A stretch of DNA of 64,000 nucleotides. It comes from an uncultured virus (IMG/VR IMGVR_UViG_3300035210_000191). Its lineage: Duplodnaviria; Heunggongvirae; Uroviricota; Caudoviricetes. The position numbers and the translations under genes were made by a program. The notes under the pieces are model-generated. The model searched no databases. It was given only the letters and a program-made list of their open reading frames with translations, and had not been told where the DNA came from. This document shows, piece after piece, positions 1 to 63,850 of the stretch. The stretch lies in IMG/VR virus record IMGVR_UViG_3300035210_000191; one strand, written 5' to 3'. Position 1 is the stretch's first letter; the number at the start of each line of letters is the position of its first letter.

Positions 1-207
1 GCTACTCAATATCGGTTTAATAATAAATCAATGTCTCCATTACAGGTTACCTATTATAACGATAAATTTCCGACGAGCTTTATTGAATTCCATGCTTTAA
101 AACGACTTTATCCTGATTTAGCTCGACTGGTTGGGTATGACCGCATTAATTTGAACAAAAGTCTGACACCCGAAGAAATAACGCTGCTTGAAATGATGAT
201 GTTTTAA
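1..207 (+). CDS. 3' end of partial ORF, member of the C-terminal MxxI-motif family
   Basis: Frame 1 open from the window start, ends ...LTPEEITLLEMMMF-stop (TAA 205-207). Confidence 0.7.
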   Translation, partial: ATQYRFNNKSMSPLQVTYYNDKFPTSFIEFHALKRLYPDLARLVGYDRINLNKSLTPEEITLLEMMMF

Positions 208-239
208 AAAACGAATTTCGTTATTCAATGTCATATTCG

Positions 240-268
240 TTGACCTAATCATCTTTTTTTGATATAAT
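240..268 (+). promoter_or_regulatory. sigma70-like promoter with extended -10
   Basis: TTGACC-17 nt-TATAAT with TG at the extended -10 position; AAGGAG RBS before ATG 294. Confidence 0.75.
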
Positions 269-293
269 ATTAAAATAAATTAAGGAGTTAAAC

Positions 294-1478
294 ATGTATC
301 CAGTTATCAAGCACGGCTCAGAAGATTCTTTGGACATTGATGCGTATATCATCATTCCAGAACCACTCACTATGCAAGAAGCAAAAAAACTTTGCGATTC
401 TTACAAAGAAGTGAACGGCAACCTTTTGAGCGTTAAAGACGGTGTGGTTAACTGGTGCTATAAAGGTACAGTGGATGAGTGTAACAACTCTATTCTGGCA
501 ACCTATGCTCTGCACAAACAAGCAGCAGCCAACCCGATTACTGCAGCTTTGCCGCGTTCTTATGCATTGAAAATGATTCGTACTGTTCGTGGATTGCTTT
601 CTTATCATTCTCGCACTGAAAAGCGTGAAGAAGTTAAAAAAGCATTACAATCTGCTGATATGTTGTTCAAGTTGGATGTGTTGACTGGCATTGATTTGCG
701 TGATGTGGCTGACTATCAAAAATCTTCGTTGGTTGAAACCTACAAGTTCTTTGCTTTTCAGTTGGGTCAAACTATGGCACTGTTGAAAGACAACGTAGAG
801 CTGTTTACTAAAAGCTCAGTGGCCGAATACTACCCAGAGTTGAGTGGTTACTTGCAGCGTAAAGAAGGCGAACCTGTAGACGCATTGCAAAAAATGTGGG
901 CTGATTTTGGCACTTACTTGAAAGAAACTGTTCGTAAAGTTGAAAAGCATGAATTATATGCCACTGATTATCAGGGTGTTCGTGAAGTGTTCGATTGTAA
1001 AAAAGAAATCATCTTGCCTCCAGTGGTTGTATTCGATATTGATGGCACTTTGCTGGATGAAAAACACCGTGCTCAATACCGTGATGTGAAAGATTGGGAT
1101 AACTATTTTGACTTGTGTCACTTGGATACCCCTATTCAACACATTATTGATTTGACCAAAGAGTATCGTGCTAAAGGTTTCGAAATTTGGTTGATGAGTG
1201 GGCGAGTGGATCGAATCATGGACAAAACAATTAAATCTATGGAAGATTATGGGGTTTGTTATGACCGTATCAAATTGCGTAGCCCTGAAAACCGTGTTCC
1301 AGATTTTGTTATCAAGCCTGCTTGGATTTCAAAATACATCGGACTGGAACGTGTTGTAGCTGTTTATGATGACACTGACCGTGTAATTGAAGGATTCCGT
1401 AAAAAAGGATTGAATGTTATTGATGTCAAGTTGATGGCGGCTCCTGTTCAAGCAAAGAAGCCAAAATTAAAGCCTTGA
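294..1478 (+). CDS. Fusion: N-terminal nucleotidyltransferase-like region plus C-terminal HAD-family phosphatase (T4 PNK 3'-phosphatase-like)
   Basis: N-terminal HGSEDSLDIDAY (GS...DxD); C-terminal HAD motifs VVFDIDGTL, LMSGR, K, VYDD. Confidence 0.7.
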   Translation: MYPVIKHGSEDSLDIDAYIIIPEPLTMQEAKKLCDSYKEVNGNLLSVKDGVVNWCYKGTVDECNNSILATYALHKQAAANPITAALPRSYALKMIRTVRGLLSYHSRTEKREEVKKALQSADMLFKLDVLTGIDLRDVADYQKSSLVETYKFFAFQLGQTMALLKDNVELFTKSSVAEYYPELSGYLQRKEGEPVDALQKMWADFGTYLKETVRKVEKHELYATDYQGVREVFDCKKEIILPPVVVFDIDGTLLDEKHRAQYRDVKDWDNYFDLCHLDTPIQHIIDLTKEYRAKGFEIWLMSGRVDRIMDKTIKSMEDYGVCYDRIKLRSPENRVPDFVIKPAWISKYIGLERVVAVYDDTDRVIEGFRKKGLNVIDVKLMAAPVQAKKPKLKP

Positions 1479-1573
1479 TGTTCAATTGAAATGTTTAATA
1501 TATTAAGCCATCTATAGTGATATAGTTGGCTTTTTTTTTCTAATTGTGATAAAATATTGATGTTATTTTATAA

Positions 1574-2632
1574 GTGGAGAAATTCAAAGTGACACAACCT
1601 TATGATTTACTTTTATCAGAGATAAAATCCTTTTATGATTTAGACAATTGCTCTGTCATTCAAGGCAGTCGATCAAATGTTTATTTACTGGATAGAAGTC
1701 CACGAGATTATCAATTTATGGTGAATCTCTTCAAACCTGAGACTGCCAATTATAATATTTCAAAAATAAAACAAATGTCATCGTTATATGATTTACTTCA
1801 TCATGTTGACACAGAATATTCAACCATCAGTAATAAACAGTTAAGAATTGAGATTTATGATGTTTCTGACACCAATGACAGAGGTCTTGTGCAAGTTTCT
1901 TTTGGAAATGTTCTTTATTTTTCAATAGAAAAAAAAGCAAAAACGACACCTGAAGATATTTATTTTAGTTCACTATTTTTGAAGGATAGCTCACGTATTG
2001 ATAACAAAAAATTTGAAGCCCATTATTCTGAATTATTAGAAAAACTTGCTCTATTTATTGATAAAGATATGACCATGCAGGAATTTAATGATCGAGATAA
2101 AAAAACACTGGATGAGATACGAACCGAGAATTTGAGTAATAAAGACCTTATTTATTGCAGTAAAGCGGATTGTGCTACCTATTTCCATAGTTTTTCACGA
2201 CCCCCAGAAGATTTTTTTGTTCCGTTAACAAGAGCATTTAGTAAAAATCTTATGCAACAAGTTAAAACGATTGAAGCTTTGCTTCGTTTTGAATCGAATC
2301 TTAAACATAATCGATCTGTTTATGAGTTGGTATTTAACACTAATCTCTCTAATTATAAATTTATACTTCCAAATCTCTTGTATTCTATAGTTTTTGAATA
2401 TGAACAGGATTTAAATTTAAGTGTTACACTTTACTTTCAATTTAAAACAGATGTGCTTCGTTATCTTGAAATTGATCATCATACACACGAGAAGGTTGAT
2501 ATATTGGGTTATGAAGCGATCTACAATTATATTTCAAATCGTATTAAAACATTTATTACTGCCAATCTTGGAGTGTCACAGGAAGAGATCACAAACGAAT
2601 CAATTTTGCTTTATAGAATGATGGCAATATGA
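1574..2632 (+). CDS. Hypothetical protein, MxxI C-terminal family
   Basis: 352 aa ORF ending EEITNESILLYRMMAI. Confidence 0.75.
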   Translation: MEKFKVTQPYDLLLSEIKSFYDLDNCSVIQGSRSNVYLLDRSPRDYQFMVNLFKPETANYNISKIKQMSSLYDLLHHVDTEYSTISNKQLRIEIYDVSDTNDRGLVQVSFGNVLYFSIEKKAKTTPEDIYFSSLFLKDSSRIDNKKFEAHYSELLEKLALFIDKDMTMQEFNDRDKKTLDEIRTENLSNKDLIYCSKADCATYFHSFSRPPEDFFVPLTRAFSKNLMQQVKTIEALLRFESNLKHNRSVYELVFNTNLSNYKFILPNLLYSIVFEYEQDLNLSVTLYFQFKTDVLRYLEIDHHTHEKVDILGYEAIYNYISNRIKTFITANLGVSQEEITNESILLYRMMAI

Positions 2633-6960: not shown

Positions 6961-7632
6961 GTGTTTCCTATTGTGAATGAGAACCATTTGCCCAATAATA
7001 TGATTACAGATCATAGGGCATTTGTTCCATCATTGGATTCTTTATTGAGTGCTGATAGGTTGTTGTCTAATAATCTTTATTTTTCTATGGATAAAGAAAC
7101 ATTTTGCCCATTCATGGAAATGCATGGATATCAGGTAGATAAGACAGTTATGCCAGCAAAAAGCACCACATTAAAATTCACCAACAAAACGACAACTATC
7201 CTTTTTCAAAAGGTGACCATAGACAATAAACGTCTTTTTACTGTTTTAATGATCTCTTACAAAGAGGGCGATGTTCGATCCATCGTCTTTAATTATGACG
7301 GAAGTTTTTATGAGATTACTTATAGAAGTGATAAAGATTTTCATATAGTTAAGAAAACCTCATTATCTCGTTATAATGATGGCACCATTTATTATCAGTT
7401 TTTTGTTCATAATAGTCTTCACTCAAAATGCTATTTATCTTCTTTTTGTTTAAATAAAGGCGTTATTAAAGACGTTTTATACTTTATAAATAACAAATGC
7501 TATCCATTGAACAAACTGTTAAATGCATTAGGTAGACCAGAAATAGATGTCAGTGCTGAAAGCGATTATTTGAAATTAGTTAATTTATTTACTGATGATG
7601 ACGCGATTCTTATCGAAATGGCTATGTGTTAA
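6961..7632 (+). CDS. Hypothetical protein, MxxI C-terminal family
   Basis: Ends LFTDDDAILIEMAMC. Confidence 0.75.
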   Translation: MFPIVNENHLPNNMITDHRAFVPSLDSLLSADRLLSNNLYFSMDKETFCPFMEMHGYQVDKTVMPAKSTTLKFTNKTTTILFQKVTIDNKRLFTVLMISYKEGDVRSIVFNYDGSFYEITYRSDKDFHIVKKTSLSRYNDGTIYYQFFVHNSLHSKCYLSSFCLNKGVIKDVLYFINNKCYPLNKLLNALGRPEIDVSAESDYLKLVNLFTDDDAILIEMAMC

Positions 7633-7654
7633 TATTGCCAAACAGGAGAAATTT

Positions 7655-8464
7655 ATGAAATTGGAACCATTATTTAAACCAGAAGACTATGTTAAAAAAC
7701 CTTTGACAGAGTATGTTATTACACCTGAGATTGCAGAGACATTAAATGAAGTAATGTTTCTTGATATGTTGAAAACAGATTATTTTTTTATGCTCTTTCT
7801 TTTGCCGCTTGGCGATATTGATTCATTTCTTAATAAGTTAGGTTTTAAACGACAAGAAAGATCTGTTTATAAGAATAGTTTAGGTTATCACTTAACTCTA
7901 TCTGTCCGTACATCACCTAAACATAAACAGGGTTATTATTTATCAACCCTTAACTACCCTGATAATGTTAAAAGAATTTCTTTTGAATTTGAGCATATGT
8001 ATAGAATTGACATCTATTACAAGAGTCAAGATGAGCGTTATTCTGAGGGTACATACCCGGTAGACTTTAACTATGTCATAAAACTCGATAAAGAAACTTA
8101 TAATATCATAAGCATTCATCATTCATGCGATCTATTTAATTTAAATCATGTTGAATTGCATACATCTAACTCGCTTAAAACATTTGCACATAAGCTTGAC
8201 TATAATATTCATCGTATTGAAGAAGAACCATTATCAAGTATTACTATTGATGAACAGTTATTCAACAATGTCTCACTATTTGATGTTGTTTATATTATTA
8301 CTTCTGAAACAGATCGTATTCGATCTTTTACCTTATCTGATATTGTTCAAACATGTGGGTTTAGCTTTGATAGGATGATTGGTAATAATATGGAGCACTT
8401 CATGAACATTGAGAACATCTTTGATGAAGATGAACTGAAAGTCATTGAAATGGTTTATATCTAA
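7655..8464 (+). CDS. Hypothetical protein, MxxI family (subfamily A)
   Basis: AGGAG RBS before ATG 7655; ends IFDEDELKVIEMVYI; similar to 9327 and 10111. Confidence 0.8.
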   Translation: MKLEPLFKPEDYVKKPLTEYVITPEIAETLNEVMFLDMLKTDYFFMLFLLPLGDIDSFLNKLGFKRQERSVYKNSLGYHLTLSVRTSPKHKQGYYLSTLNYPDNVKRISFEFEHMYRIDIYYKSQDERYSEGTYPVDFNYVIKLDKETYNIISIHHSCDLFNLNHVELHTSNSLKTFAHKLDYNIHRIEEEPLSSITIDEQLFNNVSLFDVVYIITSETDRIRSFTLSDIVQTCGFSFDRMIGNNMEHFMNIENIFDEDELKVIEMVYI

Positions 8465-9326: not shown

Positions 9327-10097
9327 ATGAATACGATAAAACCTACCAGCCTAGAAGCAGAAATTGAATATCGTTATTTGGAAACACATGTTATTAATGA
9401 AAATAATATGCATGAATACAAAGATAATTTCATTGATATGTTGAAAGATTTTTCTCATATTATAAAATTTGAGTTTAAACGAGCACAATTGAATGACTTT
9501 TTATCATTATTCGGATTTTCGTCTGCAAAAGATACTTTGTCTTTTGACGATGAGCAAGGGTGTAAGATAGCTTTAACTATTCTCGTTGAGGATGAGGTTG
9601 TACAAGACCTCTATGTTTTACAATGGGTTGAATTTACTAAGAATGATCGTTATGAACACAGTTATTTTACATCTTACAATCTACAAGGTGTTGCTGTTTC
9701 TCGGACCTTTAAGTCAGCAAACAAAATATTGAAAGGACTCACCCTTAAAACTATTCATTATATCATAGACCGTGAGACTCTTAAAATTGAGCAAATTGGT
9801 TATTGTTTTAACGATAATAGAAAGCTACAAAAAGGGATTAATGGCTATGTAACAATGATCGTTGAACATCCATTAAAAAGAATTGTTGAACACACTCATT
9901 CATTTGATCATGTAAATATTTATGATGTTTACTATACTGTACATGGGAAATCTAAGGAAATACGACTAATTGATATATTAACCCAGTGTGATTTTAGTTG
10001 TGCTAAAATGTATGGCACCGATTATACTGATTTTCTTAATATGTCTAAAATGTTTACTAAAAGAGAGCGGGACATCATTGAGATGATGTATATCTGA
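9327..10097 (+). CDS. Hypothetical protein, MxxI family (subfamily A)
   Basis: Ends MFTKRERDIIEMMYI; shares LQKGING and VNIYDV with 10111. Confidence 0.8.
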   Translation: MNTIKPTSLEAEIEYRYLETHVINENNMHEYKDNFIDMLKDFSHIIKFEFKRAQLNDFLSLFGFSSAKDTLSFDDEQGCKIALTILVEDEVVQDLYVLQWVEFTKNDRYEHSYFTSYNLQGVAVSRTFKSANKILKGLTLKTIHYIIDRETLKIEQIGYCFNDNRKLQKGINGYVTMIVEHPLKRIVEHTHSFDHVNIYDVYYTVHGKSKEIRLIDILTQCDFSCAKMYGTDYTDFLNMSKMFTKRERDIIEMMYI

Positions 10098-10110: not shown

Positions 10111-10902
10111 GTGAGAGAGAATATGCCAGAAGCTATTGAAGATGATTACTTATCTAGAATTGAATTTCATTATGTTGATAACTATCTGATCAATAAAGAA
10201 AACTGTGAAGAATACAAACCGCTGGTTATGAATATTATTGAAAGTTCAAATTATTGCTTGAAGTTTGAATTGAACACTGATGAACTCAATCAGTTTTTTA
10301 GTGATCTTGGTTTTGAAGTTAATGAAATTACTTATAGATACAGTAATCACAAAGGCTGTGTACTTGAACTTGCTTCAGCGGTTGTTGATAAAAAAGAGCA
10401 GTCCTATTTTATAATAATTAGTGCATCCTTTGAAAAAGGAATCGAATATTCTTTGTCATATACCCTAAATTTCAATCCGTCAGGACTGCCACGGATGATT
10501 AAATTTGCAAAACCTAAACGATTATTAAAAGATCTTTATTTAAAAAGTATGTCCTATGAAATTGATGACACCACGTTTAAAATCGACCAAATTTGGTATT
10601 TCTTGGAAGACTGCAGACCTTTGCAGAAAGGTATTAATGGCACAGTTCCTATGGTGGTTGAACGCCCCATTAAAAGCATACTTCAAGAAGATGGCACAAC
10701 TTTACACGATGTTAATATTTATGATGTGCATTATTTTGTCTTTAAATCAGGTGAACTGGAATCTATTTTACTGAGTGATATTCTTAAGACATGTGAGATC
10801 AGTGTGACTAAACTGTATGGCAGTAGCTTTACTCATTTTTTAAGAACCAATAAGATGTTTAATAAAAGAGAGCTTGATCTTATCAGAATGGCTTATATTT
10901 GA
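10111..10902 (+). CDS. Hypothetical protein, MxxI family (subfamily A)
   Basis: Ends MFNKRELDLIRMAYI. Confidence 0.8.
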   Translation: MRENMPEAIEDDYLSRIEFHYVDNYLINKENCEEYKPLVMNIIESSNYCLKFELNTDELNQFFSDLGFEVNEITYRYSNHKGCVLELASAVVDKKEQSYFIIISASFEKGIEYSLSYTLNFNPSGLPRMIKFAKPKRLLKDLYLKSMSYEIDDTTFKIDQIWYFLEDCRPLQKGINGTVPMVVERPIKSILQEDGTTLHDVNIYDVHYFVFKSGELESILLSDILKTCEISVTKLYGSSFTHFLRTNKMFNKRELDLIRMAYI

Positions 10903-50264: not shown

Positions 50265-50265
50265 G

Positions 50266-51042: not shown

Positions 51043-51786
51043 ATGTTAGAAGTAATTATTAATAAATTTTTAGAACGTTACCACACTGATTTTAGTTTGG
51101 GTGGCTATTCTGTACATAAGGTTACCCATTCTCCCAGTATTTCTGTGCTAAAAATGATTTCTGACGATTATGTTTTGACATTTACATTATTTAATGAACA
51201 GCCTTTACGTTTGTTGGTTGATATTCATTACTGTGATCAATTTAAACTTAATGAAAAAAACAAATCCGTTATTTTAAACAGAGAACTATCTTTTTTTCCA
51301 TTCAACTCGCATAAACATGAAATTCTAGACGCTGTTCAAAAAGAGATTTGTGAGCGTCTTGGGGTCTGTGAATTGGTAGACGCTACTGATGATCTTACTA
51401 AATCGGCTTCTGATAATTTATATAATGCTCGATTTAATAATAAGCTCTTTGAAGTTGTACCTAGTATGAAAAAAACAGTAGGTGGTCTTAAAATCTTTCG
51501 ATTAAATAATTATGTGATTAATATTACAACCGATGGTGAAGTATTTTATAACACTAAAACTTACTATTCTTTTGATAATGATTATTTTCTTTTTAATAAT
51601 AATGATGATGTCTATTCCTATTGTGGTGTTGATTATGTGGAACATGAACTTGAATCGTTATTTTTAAAAATTATTGTGAATAGAATTAATAATGAAATAT
51701 TTAAAGAGACAGAAATTTCTTTAATGCATGAATCAGAAGAATTCATTAAAAAAGCTATTAATGTTTACAAAATGCTGAAAATTTGA
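51043..51786 (+). CDS. Hypothetical protein, MxxI family
   Basis: Ends SEEFIKKAINVYKMLKI. Confidence 0.8.
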   Translation: MLEVIINKFLERYHTDFSLGGYSVHKVTHSPSISVLKMISDDYVLTFTLFNEQPLRLLVDIHYCDQFKLNEKNKSVILNRELSFFPFNSHKHEILDAVQKEICERLGVCELVDATDDLTKSASDNLYNARFNNKLFEVVPSMKKTVGGLKIFRLNNYVINITTDGEVFYNTKTYYSFDNDYFLFNNNDDVYSYCGVDYVEHELESLFLKIIVNRINNEIFKETEISLMHESEEFIKKAINVYKMLKI

Positions 51787-51839: not shown

Positions 51840-52649
51840 ATGGACAATCTATTTATAGAACAATTTGCTTCAAATTATTCCGCCAAGCTGTTTGCGGAAG
51901 GTTTTGTCTATAAGGATAAATCTGCCAGTGAACCGAAATTTTTTGATCGTAAATTTTTCTCCGTATTGACCATCCCTAATAAAAATGGTGATATTCTTTA
52001 TATAGAAGAAACAGCCAAAGAAAATAATAGTAACTATAAGTCTTATGACCTTTATTTTTCGTTTAATACAAAAGATGATGATGAAAAGACAGTTCGTATG
52101 CTTCGTTACCTTGATAAAATCTTTAATGTTAATTTTAATTACATGAAAGCTATTCATGACAGCTATGTTCAGGCGGGTTTAGATGTAGGTTTGTTTATTA
52201 AAAAGGGTGATGTAGAATTTAAACCAAATTCTATGCTTTCCCATATGGACATATCTTTCGTTAATAAGAAGTTTAATCTAGCCATTCAGAATGTTATCTA
52301 TAATCCAGTTGTCGATAAGATTATCAGAACTAAGAAAATTGATTTGAAAGGTGGTGTTCCTCAATCTTTTGATGATGGCGAGTTTACAGCTACATTCCAG
52401 ACAAAGTTATTATTTCTTGACCAAAGTCCTTTCTTTTTTTATAACAATGGGGAAACGCCTATTTTAGTCCATTCCCCAAATAGCACCATGACTGATGTGT
52501 TAACAGTAGGTATGCTTTACACTTATTTTTATGACAGCTTTAAAGATCGTATCGGAAAAAAATTCTTGGACATTGACATTGATCTTAAAACTATCAGTAA
52601 AGAATTGTTTGATAGTTATATTGATGTTCTTGATATGGCAAAAATTTAA
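51840..52649 (+). CDS. Hypothetical protein, MxxI family
   Basis: Ends FDSYIDVLDMAKI. Confidence 0.8.
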   Translation: MDNLFIEQFASNYSAKLFAEGFVYKDKSASEPKFFDRKFFSVLTIPNKNGDILYIEETAKENNSNYKSYDLYFSFNTKDDDEKTVRMLRYLDKIFNVNFNYMKAIHDSYVQAGLDVGLFIKKGDVEFKPNSMLSHMDISFVNKKFNLAIQNVIYNPVVDKIIRTKKIDLKGGVPQSFDDGEFTATFQTKLLFLDQSPFFFYNNGETPILVHSPNSTMTDVLTVGMLYTYFYDSFKDRIGKKFLDIDIDLKTISKELFDSYIDVLDMAKI

Positions 52650-52671
52650 ATTAAATGATGGAGTTACAGAT

Positions 52672-53409
52672 ATGTTGAAAAAGTTAATCATTCCAGTATT
52701 TACTAAATTCTTTAAAGAACATTTCAGTGTAGATGTTGTTGTCGAAGAAGTTCCTGCTGTGAATCCAGTTTTTACAGTGAGTATTTATAATGGAAACAAA
52801 AAACAACACCTGCTTATTATTTATATCAATGATAGACAAGGCATCTTGCCTATCTTAAATGTTTACCATTATGATGGTGAAGGTGAAATTTACTTACGTG
52901 AAATGGTTAAAAAAGCTAAACGAGTTGATTCTCACTATACTCGTATTATTAAAATGTTTGAAAACATACATGAACAATTATCATTATTCAAAACTACCAA
53001 ATTAGAATCAGAAGACAATATTTTTAACCTTTTTACATCTGATCGGGTGAACCGAGTTAATGATTTTAATAAATTATCAGGGACTGATATTGCAAAGTTC
53101 ACGTCTGTATTAGGCTTAACAACTATTCGACATGATTGCGTATTTACTATTTACAATAAAGAGTTATATCTTGATCTTAGATTGAATTGCTCAGTTAACT
53201 TTTCTGATAAACTCATCAGCTCACACCCACAATTATTGGAGAATAATCCATCTTATTATAATGATTTAGAGAAAGGGCTGTATAATTTATCAAGATCATC
53301 TATTATTAATAGGATTCGGCAGAATTTAAAAATTACGCTTAATCCACAAGAAGTTTTAGATGAAGATATTGTTCGATATGTTCAACTATTAGAGATGAAT
53401 AAAATATGA
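52672..53409 (+). CDS. Hypothetical protein, MxxI family
   Basis: GGAG RBS before ATG 52672; ends DEDIVRYVQLLEMNKI. Confidence 0.8.
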   Translation: MLKKLIIPVFTKFFKEHFSVDVVVEEVPAVNPVFTVSIYNGNKKQHLLIIYINDRQGILPILNVYHYDGEGEIYLREMVKKAKRVDSHYTRIIKMFENIHEQLSLFKTTKLESEDNIFNLFTSDRVNRVNDFNKLSGTDIAKFTSVLGLTTIRHDCVFTIYNKELYLDLRLNCSVNFSDKLISSHPQLLENNPSYYNDLEKGLYNLSRSSIINRIRQNLKITLNPQEVLDEDIVRYVQLLEMNKI

Positions 53410-54158
53410 ATATGAATGATTTGTGTGATTCAATTATATTTAAAATAAAGCCATTTTTTAAGGAAAACGTTCTCGAACCAGTCTTTTTTCAGAAACGGAC
53501 TAAGGGCGATGTCGGCAGTCATAATGTTTTTCCTGATGTTCGTGTACTTACCGCGTCAGGAGACATTATTTTTAGTTTTATTATTTCAGCAGTAAGTCAG
53601 GCTAAAAGTCATTCAATTAATATAGTGATTGGTGACCAAAAGTATTTAGATATCTACAATTTATTTGTAAAAGAATGTTGTGTTGATGGCTTTAATTTCT
53701 TTTCATTGTTTGTTGATTCTATGATTAAAAAAAGTGCTCATTTAAAATTTATCAAAGCTGTCAATATATTACAAGATTCCAAGACAATTGAGTATTCATC
53801 AAGTTTGCATGGTATTATTGATCGACAAACCTATGCAATACTTGAAACTGCTTTTGAAACTATTGAAATACAACAAAGACCTCTATTCATTTTTGAAAAC
53901 AACAAATTCTATCTTAATCCAGAATTTATATTTACGTTGGGAGGTGGTAAATTAAAATTTATCAAGAAAACAGAAAATAATGATAAATACATTAAGGATT
54001 ATGTTTCTAAATGTGCTGATTTATTTTATACACAATATTTGAACTATATACAATCAGCATTAAGTGAACTCTATGATGTTCCAGTGAATGAGATTTCTAA
54101 TTGGTCGCCAGAATTATTGATGTCTTATTATCCTGTATTAGCGATGGAGGTTTGTTAA
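53406..54158 (+). CDS. Hypothetical protein, MxxI family (subfamily E)
   Basis: FIFENNKFYL; ends SYYPVLAMEVC. Confidence 0.8.
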   Translation: MNMNDLCDSIIFKIKPFFKENVLEPVFFQKRTKGDVGSHNVFPDVRVLTASGDIIFSFIISAVSQAKSHSINIVIGDQKYLDIYNLFVKECCVDGFNFFSLFVDSMIKKSAHLKFIKAVNILQDSKTIEYSSSLHGIIDRQTYAILETAFETIEIQQRPLFIFENNKFYLNPEFIFTLGGGKLKFIKKTENNDKYIKDYVSKCADLFYTQYLNYIQSALSELYDVPVNEISNWSPELLMSYYPVLAMEVC

Positions 54159-54917
54159 ATGACAACAGAACAACTGATTGAAAGCATGAAGTCAGTTTTA
54201 AGCTTGTTTGCGGCTCAGCATCTTAATTATCCTGTTATGTTTAAGGCGTCATTAAATAATACTAAGCCTAATGGCATTTCTTTGGATATTTTACATATGC
54301 AATCCTCTACAGGACAACTTTTATTATCTTTTATTATTATGAAAGACAGAAGGATCTATGATCAAAAATTTAAATCTATCGAAGTAAAAATCCACGATGA
54401 AAAACATTTAAACATATTGAATAAATTCATAGCTGTGTGTAGCCAATACAGTTCTAATTCATTTAATCTATTTATGAATGAAACACTTAAACAGACCGAT
54501 CATCTCAAATTAATAACCTCTATTGATGTATTGCCACTTGAGGAAAGAAAGTTGATTATAGATGGTGCATATATTAGAGTGGATTTTGCTGTCCATGCAG
54601 TTATGAAAACACCTTTTGAAGTCATCAACATTTATAAGATACCCAAATTCATTTTTGAGGATAATAAATTTTACTTACATGATAAGTTTAGTTTTAATTC
54701 ACTAGGTCAACACTATACGTTTGCTCAAAAAACTGAAGACGTAGATGTCATGAAGGTTGAAGTTAAAGAATTCGCTCAGAAATTTTATGAAGAACACTAT
54801 GAAATCATCACTTCAAAGATTAATGAACTGTATGATGTTCCGTTTACTGAATTTGGCCTTTGGACTGATAAACAGTTCCGTGCTTATTACCCAGTATTGT
54901 CAATGGAACGTTATTAA
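54159..54917 (+). CDS. Hypothetical protein, MxxI family (subfamily E)
   Basis: FIFEDNKFYL; ends AYYPVLSMERY. Confidence 0.8.
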   Translation: MTTEQLIESMKSVLSLFAAQHLNYPVMFKASLNNTKPNGISLDILHMQSSTGQLLLSFIIMKDRRIYDQKFKSIEVKIHDEKHLNILNKFIAVCSQYSSNSFNLFMNETLKQTDHLKLITSIDVLPLEERKLIIDGAYIRVDFAVHAVMKTPFEVINIYKIPKFIFEDNKFYLHDKFSFNSLGQHYTFAQKTEDVDVMKVEVKEFAQKFYEEHYEIITSKINELYDVPFTEFGLWTDKQFRAYYPVLSMERY

Positions 54918-54935: not shown

Positions 54936-55700
54936 ATGAACGATAATGAATTATGTCAAGCAATGATCGCAGAGTTAAGACCTTTCTTTGAGAAAAACAT
55001 GAAAGGTTCTGTTATTTTTCATACCCGCACTGGGTTGGGGCAATATACTGGTGGTCGGACAATTTGTTGCTTGGATGTCAATACAAGTAAAGCTAAGTCT
55101 ATTTTTCGTTTTACCATTAATAACAATGTGGAAAAAGGTAATTATTTGGTAAATAATATTACCTTAGATATTGATAATAAAAAATATTTGCCACTTTATA
55201 ATAAGTTTATTAAACACTGCAGTGAACAAAGCACCGATTCTTTTTCATTATTTATGAAGGCTGCTAGTGATTACAGTGAACAACTAAAAATTATCTCGAA
55301 AATAAATGTTTTACCTTTTACAAAGCGAACATTAAAATTTGGTTCATGGAAGACACTCATGATGGATACAACTCTTCATGCGGAAGTTACAACACCTTTT
55401 GAGACTTTCAAAGTTTATAAAAGAGCTAAATTTATATTTGAAAATAATCAATTTTATCTTAATGATGAATTTCACTTCATATCATTTGGTATGGATTTTG
55501 TATTTCAGAAAAACAGTGAACAGGATGGTTTAGTTAAAATGCAGTTGCATAGTTTTGCTACTCAATTTTATGATCTTCATCAAGTTCAGATTTTAGGTTC
55601 AATCATTCGTTTATATAATTTACCTCACACCGAAGTTAATGATTTTAGTAACGAAGAAATTATGAGTTACTATCCAGTTTTGTCTATCGAACACTATTGA
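54936..55700 (+). CDS. Hypothetical protein, MxxI family (subfamily E, Met replaced by Ile)
   Basis: FIFENNQFYL; ends SYYPVLSIEHY. Confidence 0.8.
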   Translation: MNDNELCQAMIAELRPFFEKNMKGSVIFHTRTGLGQYTGGRTICCLDVNTSKAKSIFRFTINNNVEKGNYLVNNITLDIDNKKYLPLYNKFIKHCSEQSTDSFSLFMKAASDYSEQLKIISKINVLPFTKRTLKFGSWKTLMMDTTLHAEVTTPFETFKVYKRAKFIFENNQFYLNDEFHFISFGMDFVFQKNSEQDGLVKMQLHSFATQFYDLHQVQILGSIIRLYNLPHTEVNDFSNEEIMSYYPVLSIEHY

Positions 55701-57019: not shown

Positions 57020-57853
57020 GTGTCTAAACTCAATTCAAAAGAAATCTGCCAGCCACTGTTAGAACATGCTAAAACAGTGCTGTCGGATGGTTTGGATCGC
57101 CCTTTTGAACAATACACTGTTGATTATGGACACGATGGTTTTTCAATTTTTAAAAATAGAAAGACAGGTTACAAATCGAGTGCTTATAACATCCTTAATG
57201 CCTACGTGTTACCCTGTGAAAATGGTAACTTTTTAAAAGTAGGTACGGATGGATCTATTGATGACTACAAGAACCTTTATTCAACACTTTTTAAAGATTC
57301 TATTGTGGATGAAGCCTACCTTCAAGCTATTATTCAGAAGTTTTTTGAAGCAGGATTAAGATGGAATCAGTTTGACTCTGTGGAATATCACCCAAAAGAT
57401 TTATCCATTGATTCATTAACTTCTGATGACAACCATCGAAGAAAATCAACGAGTAAAAAACATTTGGCAATGTTCTATTATTCAGCTCGTAGTCGTAAAG
57501 CTGAACAACGCCGTCGATTTAGCAATAGAAAAAGTAAAGCAGCCTATTCAGTGTGTACCATGAGTTTAAATATGTCTACTTATACAGGTGAATTGTCGCC
57601 TGTCTATGTGTTAAATATTCCTTTGTTGGCTGATATTAAGTTGACTATCATGGTGGATGCTAATAAAGGTATTAGTGAAGATGACGTTCAATTGTTAGTT
57701 TATAAATATGAACGCCGCATTCGTTCTCAGTTGTATGACATCATTAAACGTAATCTTAGACTTAAAGACCATGAGTCATTAGGTGAAGTCACTGAATACT
57801 CTATGCAGCAACTTGTTGATTATGTGATTGTAACAGAAATGGCTGCTTATTGA
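57020..57853 (+). CDS. Hypothetical protein, MxxI family
   Basis: GTG start abutting serS; ends LVDYVIVTEMAAY. Confidence 0.8.
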   Translation: MSKLNSKEICQPLLEHAKTVLSDGLDRPFEQYTVDYGHDGFSIFKNRKTGYKSSAYNILNAYVLPCENGNFLKVGTDGSIDDYKNLYSTLFKDSIVDEAYLQAIIQKFFEAGLRWNQFDSVEYHPKDLSIDSLTSDDNHRRKSTSKKHLAMFYYSARSRKAEQRRRFSNRKSKAAYSVCTMSLNMSTYTGELSPVYVLNIPLLADIKLTIMVDANKGISEDDVQLLVYKYERRIRSQLYDIIKRNLRLKDHESLGEVTEYSMQQLVDYVIVTEMAAY

Positions 57854-57904: not shown

Positions 57905-58666
57905 ATGTCAACTTTATTAGACAATGCTACGTTTATTAAAAACAATATTGTAAAATTTATTGTTGACGTTTTAGTTTGTGAATTAGATTCTTTTTCTATT
58001 GAAGAGAATGCAGATCAAACAGGGGCTATTATTACCTGTTACTACAAAACAGAAAAAAATAAATTGCACTCTATTTCGGCAGATTGTTTACACGACACCC
58101 AAGAAATTAGTATTAAATCCAGTGCAAACCCCGGACTGATTCGAGACTTCTATTGGTTTTTCATGTCTAAACAAGAAAATGAACAACTACATCTTATTAA
58201 AGACTCTATCAACGCCATTCTTAGTGAATTTCAGGTAGGTTCAGTGCATATGAAATTTAATGCTCAGCCTATGGGTGAAATTTACCATGATAAAAAAAGA
58301 AAAAGTAAATATTGTATTCATAAAGAAATGTTACAAGGTAAAATTTCATTTGAAAGCCATTTTAATGAATTTTCTTTCATGAACGCACGTCTTAAATGTA
58401 AACCTTATTACTATTTGGATGGCTCCATATTAAAATCTAGTAAGATGATACAATTTGTTATTACAGCTCAATCATTTTCTCTTGACTTAAAAGATGATGA
58501 AGATTTTTTGAATAGAGTTAATACAATGTGCAGCAGTATTTACGCTATTGTTTTAAAAAACGCAGTTTCTACTATTTCAGAAAAGTTTTGTCTTGATGAT
58601 ATAAGCTGTTTTTCTGAGGATGATATTAAAGGTTATCTAACACTTATTACTATGGAAAATATTTAA
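57905..58666 (+). CDS. Hypothetical protein, MxxI family
   Basis: TGGTATAAT upstream; ends SEDDIKGYLTLITMENI. Confidence 0.8.
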   Translation: MSTLLDNATFIKNNIVKFIVDVLVCELDSFSIEENADQTGAIITCYYKTEKNKLHSISADCLHDTQEISIKSSANPGLIRDFYWFFMSKQENEQLHLIKDSINAILSEFQVGSVHMKFNAQPMGEIYHDKKRKSKYCIHKEMLQGKISFESHFNEFSFMNARLKCKPYYYLDGSILKSSKMIQFVITAQSFSLDLKDDEDFLNRVNTMCSSIYAIVLKNAVSTISEKFCLDDISCFSEDDIKGYLTLITMENI

Positions 58667-59478
58667 TGAACGAATTCACCACTGTTGATAACATTAAACA
58701 AGCATTCAGTTTGATACTGGGTGATGATTATTCTCTTAATTTTTATGAAGATCAAAAAACGTTTTATTTGTTTAATACTGTGACCATGAAAAGAATGCTC
58801 ACTTTTGAATACGATAAAGAATCTCGTAAATTTAGTTATTATATATTAACTGATTATGATTTTGCTGATACAGCAAGCTCTATTTTCAAACAAGTGATGG
58901 AATTTAAAACCTGTCAGATGATTTCAGATGCGTTTTTTTATCATGAAATTTCTAAGATTATTTTCAAAGATCCTATTGTTTTTGACGAAAAAACGTTTCA
59001 TCGATCAAAAAACTTGGGTAAACAGATAAAATCTTCTCCTAACTTCTATTACAGAAATGCATGGAATATGATTTTTGTAGAGATGGGTTATATTGTAACA
59101 GAAAATTTTAACATTAAACCGATTATTGATTTTTGTATCAATTTGCGTGGTTTTGGTAAAATTCGATTTTTTGTTGATGAGGATGCAGGAACATTTACTA
59201 AACTATTGGATACAACGCATTACAATTTATGTACAGAACAGCCTGATCTTAGTAATACTGTCGGCAGTATTATCTCATCAGCCGATGTCGGAGTAAAAGA
59301 TAGCGTTAATGATGAACCTACTTTGGTTAACCTTAATGATTACATTCAGGATTTCATGATTAAGCTGTCAACTGAGTTATACCCGTTTTATGTCAATCAA
59401 TTTAATTTGGTAGACATCAGTAGTGAGGCTAATGGATCTCTTAATGATTTTAAAGTATTGGAGATGTTAAAAGTATGA
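58666..59478 (+). CDS. Hypothetical protein, MxxI family
   Basis: TAATG coupling; ends LNDFKVLEMLKV. Confidence 0.8.
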   Translation: MNEFTTVDNIKQAFSLILGDDYSLNFYEDQKTFYLFNTVTMKRMLTFEYDKESRKFSYYILTDYDFADTASSIFKQVMEFKTCQMISDAFFYHEISKIIFKDPIVFDEKTFHRSKNLGKQIKSSPNFYYRNAWNMIFVEMGYIVTENFNIKPIIDFCINLRGFGKIRFFVDEDAGTFTKLLDTTHYNLCTEQPDLSNTVGSIISSADVGVKDSVNDEPTLVNLNDYIQDFMIKLSTELYPFYVNQFNLVDISSEANGSLNDFKVLEMLKV

Positions 59479-60254
59479 CAAATAAAAAAGAAGTCAATCA
59501 CCTTTTGTTTATTAAAAAGGATTTTAGTCACCTATTGAAAGAAAAATTTAATCTTGATGTGATTGGAACTAATATTAAACATAAAGTCGATATGTGTCAG
59601 TCTGATGTCATTAAATTTACTGTGTGTTTCAATAATGAGCATAAGTTTATTTATGTCTATATTAATCGACAAGATAAAAAGACTATTCATATTTCAACTG
59701 ATATTAATGAAACCTTTCTTGATGAACTATCTCAACTGCTTTTGCATAAAGATGCTGATTCATTCATCAAAGATTTTAATAAGGGATTTTTAGACTTTAC
59801 GAACAAATATAGTTTATTAAAGTCTTCAGATTTTCATGATGAACCCTTCTTTAAATCACAGTTTGGTTTCATTAGATCGTACAGCTCTCATTCTTATTTT
59901 TATGCGATGAGAAGCTATTCGAACCATTTTTTGAATGCTAAATTATACAAAGTTCAAAATTCAATGATTATGATGACCACTAAATTGATGTTTCAATATT
60001 GTGATGGTCAATTTATTGCGTATCCTTATCTTAAAATTAAGTTTGGTTCTGTTGAACATGATATTCATTTGTCGAGTGCTCACACTATGCAGAATAATCT
60101 TGCTGGTTTTTTGACAAAAGTTAAAAATGAAATCGACCCTATTGTGCAAACTCTTTTCAAAAAATTATTTGATATTGATGAAGCAGGTTTTAAAGCTCTC
60201 AATAAAGAATCTTTTGAAGATCACCTCGCCATCATTGCAATGCAGCATATTTGA
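59475..60254 (+). CDS. Hypothetical protein, MxxI family
   Basis: ATGA coupling; ends SFEDHLAIIAMQHI. Confidence 0.8.
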   Translation: MTNKKEVNHLLFIKKDFSHLLKEKFNLDVIGTNIKHKVDMCQSDVIKFTVCFNNEHKFIYVYINRQDKKTIHISTDINETFLDELSQLLLHKDADSFIKDFNKGFLDFTNKYSLLKSSDFHDEPFFKSQFGFIRSYSSHSYFYAMRSYSNHFLNAKLYKVQNSMIMMTTKLMFQYCDGQFIAYPYLKIKFGSVEHDIHLSSAHTMQNNLAGFLTKVKNEIDPIVQTLFKKLFDIDEAGFKALNKESFEDHLAIIAMQHI

Positions 60255-60269: not shown

Positions 60270-61184
60270 ATGAAAAATATTGATCTAACAGCCTTACTTA
60301 GCAGTATCAACAGTGGTGCTGTCAAAGTGACAACTTTTAATCAAGCAACAAAAGATAACAAGGAAAAACAAGAGGCCGCTATGAAAGAATATGATCCACT
60401 TATAAAACAAATTAGATCTATACTGGTTGATAAGTATGGTCCTAAAACCTATCCTATTGAAATTAATGACCCCTATCAAACTTATGGATTCAGAATTGTT
60501 CTTGAAACTGGTCCTAGACCCTTTGATAATAAATACTTACGAGTTTATAACAATGTGTATGATGGTCAAGCTGTTTATTCAATTTTTAATGATAAGATTG
60601 ATAAAAGTAAAGTTGTTCTCACTTTATTTGAACAGTTGATGGCTGGCCGTGATTTTCCATCTTATATTATGGAGGCTGTTATTGATCGTTATATCAAAGA
60701 GACTAATGAATTTGAATTCTTTGAAAAGTTTGAAAAAAGTGCTATTCCACAACAGTTAAAAGATTTTTTCGTAAAGACTAAAACTTACAAAGATACAAAA
60801 GAGCAACGTTTGTGTAAATCTTATTATGGTTATCTTTCAAAGACTGAGAATTCAAGAAAACAAACGAGCTTTTCATTTTCTCCGTCCAAAGTAGAAATTG
60901 TCTTGCTGCGAGATGAAAAAGGGGGATTCGTGCCGGGATTTTTATTTAACTTACCTGTCTTATCAACTTTAAAATTTAAGTATGCAGTTCCTATGTTTTC
61001 TGATAATATGGAAGCTTCTATTGATGAGCTATTTGAGAAATTTAATGCTAAATTCATAAAGTGTGTGGTTAATATTATTGGTAGAGCTGAAAACTTAAAA
61101 CTGAAGGAGAAAAAATTAATGATGACCTTGCCAAGAGCCGAGTTAATTGGTCGATTGAAAGTAACTGAGATGTTGACGTATTAA
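60270..61184 (+). CDS. Hypothetical protein, MxxI family
   Basis: Ends LIGRLKVTEMLTY. Confidence 0.8.
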   Translation: MKNIDLTALLSSINSGAVKVTTFNQATKDNKEKQEAAMKEYDPLIKQIRSILVDKYGPKTYPIEINDPYQTYGFRIVLETGPRPFDNKYLRVYNNVYDGQAVYSIFNDKIDKSKVVLTLFEQLMAGRDFPSYIMEAVIDRYIKETNEFEFFEKFEKSAIPQQLKDFFVKTKTYKDTKEQRLCKSYYGYLSKTENSRKQTSFSFSPSKVEIVLLRDEKGGFVPGFLFNLPVLSTLKFKYAVPMFSDNMEASIDELFEKFNAKFIKCVVNIIGRAENLKLKEKKLMMTLPRAELIGRLKVTEMLTY

Positions 61185-61186: not shown

Positions 61187-61978
61187 ATGTCAAACATTAA
61201 CCAGACGATTATTGACGCTGTTTCTAAAACCTTTGATGGTCATTTTGTTTCGGCCACATTTTTAAACAGTTCAACACTTTCATTAACTCATCAGAACAAT
61301 GAGCCAGTCGCCTTGTTAAATTTTCATGGGAATGTTCTTTCGCGTTCAGTTTTTTATAATGAAGATGTCTATTTATCATGTATTCCAGATATTATGTATA
61401 CCCGAGAAGAAAACAAGCTACTCAAAAAAGCGTTTTCATCTTTTTGCTTGAATGATGCCCTTGTTCATATGATTAAAACTAAGGGGGATTTTGATTTAAA
61501 ATCCATTCATCGAGTCGTTACTGTCAACCAACGAGTCGAGCATATGTTTTATAATTCATGTACATTATCAGATATAGATCTTTATCACTCACCGAAAAGA
61601 CACAACTTCTATTATTCTTATGACAAGCGAATGGTTTTAGATAATGCTGGAAAATTTCACCCGATCTTAGTGTTGGATATCTCTTTAAAACAAAAGACTT
61701 ATTCAATTTTACTATCGCCTGAACTGAATAAAGCGGCGAATATTTCAACGTTTAGTGGAAATAATGCTGATAGGTGTTTATTGACCTTTGAACAATTGTT
61801 CGATAATGGTGTTGAGATTAATGATTTAAAGACTGCAATTGATAGTAATTGGACATACGATATTTTCTTTTACTATATTGACATTCTTCTTAACGACAGG
61901 AAACTGGTTGAGAGTATTTTTGACAGTTGTTCTAATTACGCTGAAATGATGAATTTGGTTGAAATGAATCGTATATAA
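61187..61978 (+). CDS. Hypothetical protein, MxxI family
   Basis: Ends YAEMMNLVEMNRI. Confidence 0.8.
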   Translation: MSNINQTIIDAVSKTFDGHFVSATFLNSSTLSLTHQNNEPVALLNFHGNVLSRSVFYNEDVYLSCIPDIMYTREENKLLKKAFSSFCLNDALVHMIKTKGDFDLKSIHRVVTVNQRVEHMFYNSCTLSDIDLYHSPKRHNFYYSYDKRMVLDNAGKFHPILVLDISLKQKTYSILLSPELNKAANISTFSGNNADRCLLTFEQLFDNGVEINDLKTAIDSNWTYDIFFYYIDILLNDRKLVESIFDSCSNYAEMMNLVEMNRI

Positions 61979-62011
61979 TGTTATACTCATTCATTATTTT
62001 TGGAGCTTATT

Positions 62012-62809
62012 ATGGAAAATTTTAGAAATGCTGTTTCTGGGGCATTTGATACCAGAACAACAAAAACAACATTTTTTGAATATGAGCAATATCCTATGAT
62101 GGACACGCAAGTTCATATTTTGTTTAAAAAACATAAAAACCCCGTTAATATAGATAAAACATTTTTAAGTTTTGCTATTTCGCCGGGACAACCATTTTTC
62201 CATTCAATTTGTCTCAAAGATCTTGCTTTTATAGATAAGTTTAATCAAATGTTTCAAATGCATAAAACATCAAGAGAAGATTTCGTCTTTATCAATGACT
62301 ATCTTCATTCTTTTCATAAAAATGATAATTTTTCAAAATTATTGATAATGAATGATCATATCAAATCTCATGAGTTTTATACTTTCAAAAAATTATATAT
62401 GTTAGAAAAAGACGAGACTAAATATGGTGTAACATCTTGTGTTCACACGTCTTACAGAAGTGTTGCACAATATGAATTTATTAAAAACTTTTCAATAACC
62501 CGTGATGGAGCAATAGCCCTGTTTCCAACTGTTCATTTTTTTAAGCATGTTAATCCATTTTCATTATATTTTAGCCTGTCTGATAAAAAGGTATATAAAC
62601 TTCCAGAAAGTTTAGCTGGCTTAGTGACGTTGGAAGATATTGTAGAAGCCAGCACCCTTTTTACACATCATGACATTGATGTTTTTACAGATGAAATATT
62701 GATGATGTATGTGTGTAATCTTCATAATGGAGTTTATCAAGAATTTTTAGACATACCACAAGAAAATATTTCTGATAAGATAGATTTATTACTAATGACC
62801 ACTATTTAA
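62012..62809 (+). CDS. Hypothetical protein, MxxI family
   Basis: GGAG RBS before ATG 62012; ends ISDKIDLLLMTTI. Confidence 0.8.
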   Translation: MENFRNAVSGAFDTRTTKTTFFEYEQYPMMDTQVHILFKKHKNPVNIDKTFLSFAISPGQPFFHSICLKDLAFIDKFNQMFQMHKTSREDFVFINDYLHSFHKNDNFSKLLIMNDHIKSHEFYTFKKLYMLEKDETKYGVTSCVHTSYRSVAQYEFIKNFSITRDGAIALFPTVHFFKHVNPFSLYFSLSDKKVYKLPESLAGLVTLEDIVEASTLFTHHDIDVFTDEILMMYVCNLHNGVYQEFLDIPQENISDKIDLLLMTTI

Positions 62810-62871
62810 AAATCGTTTACAAAAAAGGCATTCTAATTATCTTAGGTGCCTTTTTTTATTTATTTTAAATA

Positions 62872-63207
62872 TTATTTGACATTTTTCTCTTTGGAACGTT
62901 GGTAATTCATCATTCTTTTTTCCATTTGATAATACCAATGTCTACGTGGATATTGAGCTTTCACTTCGAGCCATGACTTATTGAAAAAGAAATCTAGTGT
63001 TGCTTGTGGTGTCTCCAATGTTACATATTTTGAACTGATGGATATTGATGAACATCCAAGTTCACCACGACTGTCCACAATCAATCCGTTCATATTACGC
63101 AGACGTGTAATCGTTAACAATTCATCGTGCATGAAAAAATCGCTGGATTGTTTAAACTTTGTATAGTAATCATACAATGACCACACATACCTTAATACAT
63201 TTAACAT
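62872..63207 (-). CDS. Hypothetical protein
   Basis: AGGAG RBS; 111 aa. Confidence 0.65.
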   Translation of the reverse strand: MLNVLRYVWSLYDYYTKFKQSSDFFMHDELLTITRLRNMNGLIVDSRGELGCSSISISSKYVTLETPQATLDFFFNKSWLEVKAQYPRRHWYYQMEKRMMNYQRSKEKNVK

Positions 63208-63232
63208 GGTTATCTCCTGTTCAGCAATGTGG

Positions 63233-63850
63233 TTAAATTCTTGCCATCTTTAATAATTCAAAAGCCTGATCATCAAACTGGCTCATGTGCGTAATTTCTA
63301 AGCCAATGCTTTCCCTCAGCATTTCTTGAAATTGTGGATAGATTACGTTTTCATATAACTCTTTATAACTGTAAGCTGTATTTTTCATACCTAATGTACA
63401 TTCCATCATTGGCCCAATCGATATTTCTTTACAAAGGTTGGAATAAGATATGACTTCTTTTTGTTTAATTTCAGGTTCTTTTTTAATTTTCCTTTCTATA
63501 TAGGTCGCTTCAAAACCTTTGCTGAAAACATTAAAACCATAGTCTTTAGGTGTATACAAAAAGTAATCAAAATGAGCGTATATATTAAAAATTTCGATAA
63601 TTTTTTCTAAATATTCGTCGTTTTCATCTTCAAAAGCAATGTTAAAAAAGCTTTTGGCGGTGTGTTTATTGATGATAAAAAGACCTTTGTGTAATCTAAT
63701 ATAGGGTATGTCATTAAAATCAATAAGGACACCTTCCGGTGTACAATTTAATTCACCCGGATTTTTTATTTCTAGAAATTTTCTACTTTTTTCTTTTATT
63801 TTATCAAGTAGCTCTTCTTTGTTTAACATGCTCTCATTCCGCCTTTTCAA
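63233..63850 (-). CDS. Hypothetical protein, MxxI family
   Basis: Ends QFDDQAFELLKMARI; the start may be ATG 63829. Confidence 0.75.
   Translation of the reverse strand: MKRRNESMLNKEELLDKIKEKSRKFLEIKNPGELNCTPEGVLIDFNDIPYIRLHKGLFIINKHTAKSFFNIAFEDENDEYLEKIIEIFNIYAHFDYFLYTPKDYGFNVFSKGFEATYIERKIKKEPEIKQKEVISYSNLCKEISIGPMMECTLGMKNTAYSYKELYENVIYPQFQEMLRESIGLEITHMSQFDDQAFELLKMARI

Follow-up and report, generated by a model that had tools for sequence, protein, structure and literature searches.

A Clade-Restricted, Greatly Expanded Protein Family with a Strictly Positioned C-Terminal Helix in an Uncultured Virus Record

RESULTS

A tail at the exact C-terminus of nearly half of the proteins

We describe a greatly expanded protein family that is restricted to a narrow clade and whose members carry a terminal helix at a strictly defined position. 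It is encoded on a 64,000-nucleotide stretch of DNA (referred to here, at its full length, as the window) from an uncultured virus assigned to the Caudoviricetes (IMG/VR record IMGVR_UViG_3300035210_000191), where it accounts for 47% of the genes, and on a 437-kb relative (G001, comprising L101 to L122 in full), where its share is at least 12%. An earlier note, made from the letters of the window, had pointed to a strict C-terminal tag on 40 proteins that it held to be otherwise unrelated and mostly unalignable. The tag stands, but its carriers are very probably members of one lineage-specific, tandem-amplified and fast-evolving family.

Open reading frames (ORFs) were called in all six frames of the window, and their C-terminal ends were inspected. 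The pattern [LVI]xx[M/I]xx[I/Y/V/C/F]-stop ends 38 complete ORFs and the 5'-partial ORF at positions 1 to 207, and a variant ending in AVIMFYQ (22469-23089) is the 40th carrier. Methionine occupies position -4 in 39/40 carriers, the exception being 54936-55700 with VLSIEHY, and L, V or I occupies position -7 in 39/40, with Ala instead in 22469-23089. The final residue is I in 26 carriers, Y in 7, V in 3, C in 2, and F and Q in one each. This independent ORF call returned figures identical to those first reported for the number of carriers and for the residues at -7, -4 and -1, and it confirmed that the ligase, ThrRS, SerRS, DsbA-like and SPFH proteins of the window are devoid of the tail.

The tail is far more frequent than expected by chance. 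Among the 78 non-overlapping window ORFs of at least 100 amino acids (aa), the strict pattern [LVI]xxMxx[IYVCF] was located exactly at the C-terminus in 37 and at none of the offsets from 1 to 8 (0/78 each); given its internal rate of 0.0016 per position, ∼0.12 terminal matches would be expected. In G001, the strict tail was found at offset 0 in 61/499 ORFs, against 0 to 3 at each other offset. This number rose to 72 once Ile was accepted at -4, and about a dozen further ORFs had decayed tails, with another last residue or with one or two extra residues.

A looser signature precedes the heptad: D/E is favored at -22, E at -15 and Y or E at -10, while positions -21/-20 and -9 tend to be hydrophobic. 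The enrichment of acidic residues near the end, which had been described as a patch, is real, but its position is loose (D/E at -22 in 22/39 members, E at -15 in 14/39 and D/E at -11 in 15/39). Within the heptad, hydrophobic residues are exchanged at -7, -6 and -1, while -4 is Met in 38/39. A nucleotidyltransferase (NTase)-like protein annotated as "DNA polymerase" (27769-28863) was also considered as a tagged protein and was rejected. It ends in LVKMKEA, and since its orthologues end differently, we regard this as a chance match.

Selection on the motif acts on the protein, and precisely at its C-terminus. Members in the window use 9 different codons at -7 and 8 at -1, terminate with TAA (21) or TGA (17), and are followed by DNA that may contain a terminator, a promoter or an overlapping start codon. 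Because codons, stops and downstream sequence all vary, selection must act on the protein and not on the DNA, which rules out the DNA-level conservation that the earlier note had named as a way in which its proposal could fail. A ribosome-binding site, terminator or promoter that serves the following gene and coincidentally overlaps the last codons would agree with the start codons that overlap or abut some members. Nevertheless, with synonymous or similar codons in such variety, unrelated downstream DNA, and the motif present on both strands and also ahead of terminators, we consider such a signal practically out of the question.

The carriers as one hyperdivergent paralogous family

No Pfam domain could be detected on any tagged protein, be it in the window (0/39; E ≤ 0.01) or in G001 (0/59; E ≤ 0.001), and none of 22 tagged proteins searched, 22469-23089 among them, matched PHROGs. 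Untagged genes had Pfam matches in 13/37 cases in the window and in 99/421 cases in G001 (E ≤ 1e-5). Since a modular signal would be expected on many protein families, the lack of known domains among the carriers argues against a tag on unrelated proteins. The members also vary little in length (median, 255 aa in the window and 252 aa in G001) and lie in tandem arrays.

Sequence links between the members are nonetheless sparse. An all-against-all blastp comparison of the 39 members yielded only 5 triplets and 24 singletons, and hhalign comparisons of the triplets with their tails included gave weak matches that were confined to the tails. When body-only profiles, with the last 30 residues cut, were compared among 24 subfamilies and a link was counted at an hhalign probability of at least 20%, 6/276 pairs matched, at probabilities of 21 to 97% (maximum, 96.8%); reversed-sequence controls peaked at 1.1% (first hhalign run, 55 pairs). 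All six matches were collinear, extended over the C-terminal lobe, and connected 7/24 subfamilies, five of them from three window loci (16.8, 42 to 43 and 57 to 61 kb) and two in G001. A hidden Markov model (HMM) of the tail alone (45 columns) scored a median of 11.7 bits, too little for searching whole databases. HMMs built from bodies only matched 64 proteins in the window and G001, of which 53 had the strict tail and 11 a decayed one, and none (0/64) had a body without any tail. We conclude from the absence of known domains, the links among subfamilies, the constant association of body and tail, and the similar architecture of the predicted structures described below that the carriers belong together as hyperdivergent paralogues.

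The family evolves fast, and more slowly at its end. In 39 best-hit pairs, which are putative orthologues, identity rose from 39% in the body through 45% between -25 and -8 to 62% over the last 7 residues, compared with 75 to 90% for the adjoining NTase-like gene among the same genomes. Orthologous genes at the syntenic loci L081 to L084 retain their tails. The distribution of the family is narrow: a search with one subfamily E member returned 6 clusters among 5.8 billion proteins, and the subfamily B profile matched 36 of 1.84 billion representatives at E ≤ 0.001, including ∼30 full-length members, most of them with a terminal tail. A pattern search of viral, GTDB and JGI contigs found no relatives of subfamily E, and the portions of the literature covered by our searches held no description of such a family. 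The family is new; neither Pfam nor PHROGs nor the PDB contains a relative of it.

Predicted structures of two members

AlphaFold2 (AF2) models were obtained for 54159-54917 (model 1, from 9 sequences) and 18349-18915 (model 2, from 10 sequences), two members whose subfamilies have no detectable sequence similarity to each other. The mean predicted local distance difference test score (pLDDT) was 84.1 for model 1 and 90.6 for model 2. The order of elements was the same in both, namely N-terminal helices, a small sheet, two helices, a second sheet, a long helix, a linker and the terminal helix. In both models the tail blocks reached pLDDT values of 81 to 95 and the linker values of 87 to 95; the sequence of the linker, LPxELxKPL, is also conserved within subfamily B. 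These confidence values suggest that the terminal helix is docked on the protein's own alpha/beta body.

Foldseek gave no match at E ≤ 0.001 for model 1 against the PDB or for model 2 against the PDB and BFVD. The best Z scores in wide VIA-align searches were 6.6 and 4.7 for the two models, with no convincing PDB or viral match, although four weak PDB rows (4h62_Q, 4ouh_A, 1a6z_A and 7pb8_P) recurred for both, and the ESM Atlas returned nothing but unnamed clusters scoring 0.92 or less. The fold of the family is apparently new. A common fold for all 40 carriers is likely at most, because most bodies are unlinked by sequence and the comparison of the models is limited to the order of their elements. 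Prediction of a complex between a subfamily E body and a subfamily B tail scored 0.12, which counts neither for nor against an interaction.

The carrier replicon and its relatives

The window has a G+C content of 32% and contains Shine-Dalgarno sites, TATAAT boxes, coupled genes and terminators, indicating that the element is expressed in a bacterium. An origin from a eukaryotic giant virus was considered and rejected on the grounds of the Shine-Dalgarno sites, the TATAAT boxes and the operon-like coupling of genes. The AAAATTGA motif was not enriched upstream of genes. Recognizable genes encode a PNKP-type HAD phosphatase, a DsbA/ScsC-like protein, an R2K ATP-grasp protein, a divergent NAD-dependent ligase, BI-1, ThrRS, SerRS, an HflK-like SPFH protein (40894-41802) and two tRNAs. 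The SerRS is ∼50 to 54% identical to those of various Gammaproteobacteria.

A search of a phage collection with the window proteins gave a single weak protein match, to a 642-kb uncultured phage. Close relatives of the window proteins were found on contigs of 1.84 to 1.92 Mb, and four related JGI contigs measured 1.86 Mb (L081; 1,859,102 bases), 520 kb, 437 kb and 604 kb. The sources covered by our literature searches listed no phage above about 0.84 Mb, the largest phage genome among them being 841 kb.

The 437-kb relative, G001, is listed as viral in IMG/VR, with a CheckV completeness of 98%. It has a G+C content of 30.9% and 499 ORFs of at least 100 aa, which encode DnaK, GatA/B, aminoacyl-tRNA synthetases (aaRS) of the Thr, Ser, Tyr and Trp types, NAD salvage enzymes, RNA ligases, RegB, PNKP, ART-PolyVal and PcfJ, together with efflux and chemotaxis genes and nine DEDDh_C paralogues; 322/421 of its untagged ORFs had no Pfam match. 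Domain searches of G001 revealed no sign of a capsid, portal, terminase, polymerase, clamp, ribosomal protein or secretion system, and for this reason it seems to be one piece of a larger replicon of a phage- or plasmid-like kind. The window, too, is a fragment of a larger replicon.

G001 carries 26 tRNA genes, one of which has the anticodon CUA (amber suppressor type; tRNA-Pyl according to ARAGORN) and one the four-base anticodon agaa (sites L119:15947-16020 and L120:9162-9237). TAG serves as the stop codon of 57/499 ORFs in G001 and of 4/78 in the window. Several genes of G001 are cell-like and unusual for a mobile element, namely a full-length DnaK/Hsp70 (844 bits), GatA, GatB, TyrRS, NAPRTase and NAD synthase (loci L110:2807-4708, L114:15373-18212, L113:3050-4309, L103:7234-8463 and L103:18959-19825).

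DISCUSSION

The heptad [LVI]xxMxx[IYV]-stop appears to be the end of an inherited C-terminal signature of ∼25 residues, in which an acidic/hydrophobic turn would be followed by an S/T-x-x-E helix cap and by an amphipathic helix that ends at the C-terminus. We propose a "constant handle, variable body" arrangement. The terminal helix would close the fold and at the same time provide the only invariant surface of these proteins, consisting of Met(-4) and the fixed end, through which all paralogues would most likely contact one common partner or each other. The bodies would diversify in the manner of arms-race gene families involved in host take-over and anti-defence, and the whole family would reside on a huge replicon, phage- or plasmid-like in nature, whose expression signals are bacterial. 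Taken as a whole, we hold this proposal to be about evenly balanced between right and wrong, and we put the common interface through the terminal helix marginally below that. A role of the helix beyond structure is suggested by the near-invariance of Met(-4), the lack of conservation of the surface that would hold the helix, the end fixed in 37/37 window cases, and the last seven residues being the most conserved. The fast evolution and tandem amplification of the family suggest that it may act in host take-over or anti-defence.

Several observations weigh against this proposal. Most bodies are unlinked by sequence, with 270/276 subfamily pairs at background level. The C-terminal end is not absolutely fixed outside the window, since the 11 decayed tails among the 64 body-HMM matches, all in G001, differ at the last residue, at -7 or at -4 or are extended by 1 residue, and since, among 23 diverse representatives of subfamily B, Met is replaced by Ile in 5 and the end is extended in 2. 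Comparison of the two models was confined to the order of their secondary structure elements and a few shared weak PDB rows, and their high tail pLDDT fits a purely structural helix equally well. Finally, no partner of the tail was identified. A common docking surface, as postulated in the earlier note, is still suggested by Met(-4), the fixed end and the stronger conservation of the tail relative to the body. Three machines had been proposed to read the tail, namely a T4SS (type IV secretion system) with its coupling protein, a shell (of a capsid or a compartment), and a protease or chaperone with a dedicated adaptor. None of them was found in the window or the 437-kb relative, but as both are fragments of a larger replicon, this absence carries limited weight.

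A buried core helix that is kept because the fold needs it, with no shared external partner, would explain much of what we observed. Tail and linker are modelled with high confidence in both structures, unlike typical floppy docking peptides, the LPxELxKPL linker is conserved in subfamily B, no tail was found apart from its body, and the hydrophobic exchanges at -7, -6 and -1 are those of a core helix. The earlier note had itself named a helix belonging to one shared fold as an outcome that would speak against docking; the placement of the tail in both models points in this direction, and its burial is read from the confidence values. However, Met(-4) persists in 38/39 members while its neighbors interchange freely, the body surface needed to hold the helix is not conserved across subfamilies, the last 7 residues of best-hit pairs are 62% identical compared with 39% in the body, and the offset is 0 in every window case. 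We therefore consider a purely structural role unlikely, though well within the range of plausible outcomes. Somewhat less probable still, in our estimate, is the more specific idea of a shared docking function in which variable binding modules all dock by a common LxxMxxI-COOH helix on the same hub, which might be a ring of the clamp type, a shell or a protease.

One precedent for such a hub is the sliding clamp, on which the paralogues might be tethered like tools on a belt; the C-termini that bind it are the nearest counterpart of the motif known to us. According to a review, the C-termini of gp43 (the DNA polymerase), gp55 and gp33 in T4-family phages, proteins otherwise unrelated, are interchangeable hydrophobic-acidic segments that bind a single hub, gp45, through flexible linkers, the one in gp55 being divergent and 17 residues long (PMC2988020). 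The likeness to our family lies in a hydrophobic-acidic extreme C-terminus common to several proteins of one element, and the end of RB69 gp43, KKASLFDMFDF-stop, fits the pattern [LVI]xxMxx[IYVCF]-stop exactly (L at -7, M at -4, F at -1); one member in the window ends in LFDMMKI. RB69 gp43 is, however, a single comparator that was chosen after the motif had been seen, and RB69 gp55 ends in SLDFLYEDDN, so that the motif is not strictly terminal even there. A literature search found no paper containing the RB69 tail peptide string. The T4 tails belong to three proteins of known function and sit on flexible, divergent linkers, whereas here dozens of paralogues of one unknown family have a confidently modelled linker. 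Neither the window nor G001, fragments as they are, yielded a clamp gene of the gp45, PCNA or DnaN type, no carrier has a replication or transcription domain, and the binding of 12 to 47% of all genes' products to a clamp would be hard to explain. A clamp tether thus appears quite improbable.

Short terminal signals of other kinds resemble the tail as well. Encapsulin cargo-loading peptides, the encapsulation helices of bacterial microcompartments (BMC) and Dot/Icm secretion signals are all short, terminal and hydrophobic in periodicity, with acidic residues nearby, but they occur on many unrelated families and are usually flexible. A signal that directs proteins into a capsid, inner body or protein compartment would agree with a short amphipathic helix with an S/T-x-x-E cap, which resembles encapsulation peptides, and with the phage-like content of the replicon (PNKP, RNA ligases, RegB, R2K, aaRS and tRNAs) and the listing of G001 as viral. 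Yet the motif is confined to one family, in which 0/98 carriers have a known domain, the tail is modelled as docked rather than free, and capsid, portal, terminase, prohead protease, encapsulin and BMC shell genes were not found in the window or in the 437 kb of G001, which cover part of the replicon; this makes loading about as improbable as the clamp. A C-terminal degron, or a handle by which an adaptor delivers itself or its bound targets to a host AAA+ protease, has in its favor that AAA+ proteases read C-terminal tails, that the heptad is non-polar and at a fixed end, and that an HflK-like SPFH protein is encoded nearby. We consider it very unlikely, as the two models and the i/i+3/i+6 spacing point to a helix rather than an extended degron, no protease is linked to the arrays, and the family tail is unlike any ClpX or SspB tail known to us. 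Export by a type IV (Dot/Icm-like) or another machine is the least credible of these functions. Acidic residues do precede a hydrophobic terminus, as they do in Dot/Icm signals, but effector sets are heterogeneous, carry varied domains and have a loose signal, whereas the carriers here form one family of one length class with a strict motif and no known domain; T4SS, coupling-protein and relaxase domains were also not found in the 64 kb of the window and the 437 kb of G001.

In its way of working, the family would come closest to the adaptor-type gene families that have expanded in large viruses. Giant viruses possess lineage-specific multigene families with a short constant terminal module, such as the poxvirus ankyrin proteins with their PRANC/F-box-like C-terminus, and such families in large viruses usually serve as weapons or counter-weapons against the host. 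By analogy, both kinds of family are amplified in tandem, diverge fast and end in a small conserved C-terminal module by which a single hub might be contacted. The differences are that the host type here is bacterial, that the body is not a known repeat fold, and that the constant module is merely a heptad to ∼25 residues and matches no known domain. If the hub-and-adaptor idea were true, the family would be to bacterial viruses what the F-box or PRANC adaptor families are to eukaryotic ones, and more than 1/10 of the genes of the replicon, and about half of those in the window, would encode such variable modules.

The significance of these observations lies in the fact that a single undescribed family, with no relative in sequence or fold, fills so much of the window and keeps one invariant terminal helix. 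This constant helix offers a direct experimental handle on what all members touch. Accounting for the largest gene family would also help to define the nature of the carrier replicon, with its phage-like content, its many translation genes and its relatives on contigs of 1.84 to 1.92 Mb.

Members of the family and other genes of the window

The carriers of the tail in the window are listed in Table 1. The longest-ORF starts of two members (7595-7632 and 52531-52649) overlap the tail of the preceding member by 38 and 119 bases, respectively, and the real starts of these two members are probably the next in-frame ATG codons downstream.

Table 1. Carriers of the C-terminal tail in the window
Feature	Positions	Strand	Tail	Remarks
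Family member, 5'-partial	1-207	+	LLEMMMF	
Family member	1574-2632	+	LYRMMAI	Orthologue in G001
Family member	6961-7632	+	LIEMAMC	
Family member, subfamily A	7595-8464	+	VIEMVYI	True start probably downstream of 7632
Family member, subfamily A	9327-10097	+	IIEMMYI	
Family member, subfamily A	10111-10902	+	LIRMAYI	
Family member	13981-14799	+	LFDMMKI	
Family member	16799-17716	+	LLMMESI	Body profile links to other subfamilies
Family member, subfamily B	17713-18333	+	VFLMYVI	
Family member, subfamily B	18349-18915	+	LLQMIHI	AF2 model 2 (pLDDT 90.6)
Family member, subfamily B	18973-19542	+	VIRMICI	
Family member, subfamily C	20325-21059	+	LVKMTYY	
Family member, subfamily C	21094-21786	+	LIKMVYY	
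Family member, subfamily C	21791-22459	+	IVKMYYY	
Variant member	22469-23089	+	AVIMFYQ	Ala at -7, Gln at -1; variant kept in orthologues
Family member, subfamily D	25466-26176	-	VKDMVYI	
Family member, subfamily D	26192-26986	-	LKEMIYI	
Family member, subfamily D	26983-27711	-	VKEMTYI	
Family member	31608-32270	+	LFEMSTI	
Family member	34359-35198	+	LNDMISV	
Family member	37865-38758	-	LTDMATI	
Family member	42322-43059	+	VLSMEKI	Body profile links to 43061 and 16799 groups
Family member	43061-43762	+	LIAMDSI	
Family member	43762-44535	+	LAEMALI	
Family member	49650-50264	+	LCDMIEV	
Family member	50254-51033	+	LLEMLAI	
Family member	51043-51786	+	VYKMLKI	
Family member	51840-52649	+	VLDMAKI	
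Family member	52531-53409	+	LLEMNKI	True start probably downstream of 52649
Family member, subfamily E	53406-54158	+	VLAMEVC	
Family member, subfamily E	54159-54917	+	VLSMERY	AF2 model 1 (pLDDT 84.1)
Family member, subfamily E	54936-55700	+	VLSIEHY	Ile at -4
Family member	57020-57853	+	VTEMAAY	Body profile links to other subfamilies
Family member	57905-58666	+	LITMENI	
Family member	58666-59478	+	VLEMLKV	
Family member	59475-60254	+	IIAMQHI	
Family member	60270-61184	+	VTEMLTY	
Family member	61187-61978	+	LVEMNRI	
Family member	62000-62809	+	LLLMTTI	
Family member	63233-63850	-	LLKMARI	

The NTase-like gene at 27769-28863 (minus strand) encodes a protein of 364 aa that matches phrog_24943 ("DNA polymerase") and has 888 relatives, some of them named "nucleotidyltransferase family protein." Many of these relatives are located on Pseudomonas megaplasmids and on contigs of 400 to 900 kb, and no sequence match to this protein was found in the PDB. 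The ThrRS encoded at 23133-24311 (minus strand) is 392 aa long and covers positions 173 to 535 of the 565-position thrS model, leaving out the N-terminal part, which presumably holds the TGS and editing domains; its orthologue in G001 has 421 aa.

Other groups of paralogues were also observed. The nine DEDDh_C proteins of G001 constitute a second expanded family, with lengths of 300 to 350 aa, in which a DEDDh_C domain (DNA polymerase III epsilon-like C-terminal) is combined with an unannotated N-terminal half (for example, L101:834-1829, L101:6308-7222, L104:9351-10271, L107:7839-8882, L109:5445-7459, L109:13912-14937 and L121:13528-14487). In the window, neither of the following two groups has a Pfam or PHROG match. 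The untagged neighbors 36112-36987 and 37010-37771, both on the minus strand, share the ending …GPNPNF.YSEICRV.K…, and four tandem untagged ORFs of 142 to 175 aa occupy 45019-46919 (minus strand), three of them with similar C-terminal regions (…YY…IKASxN…).

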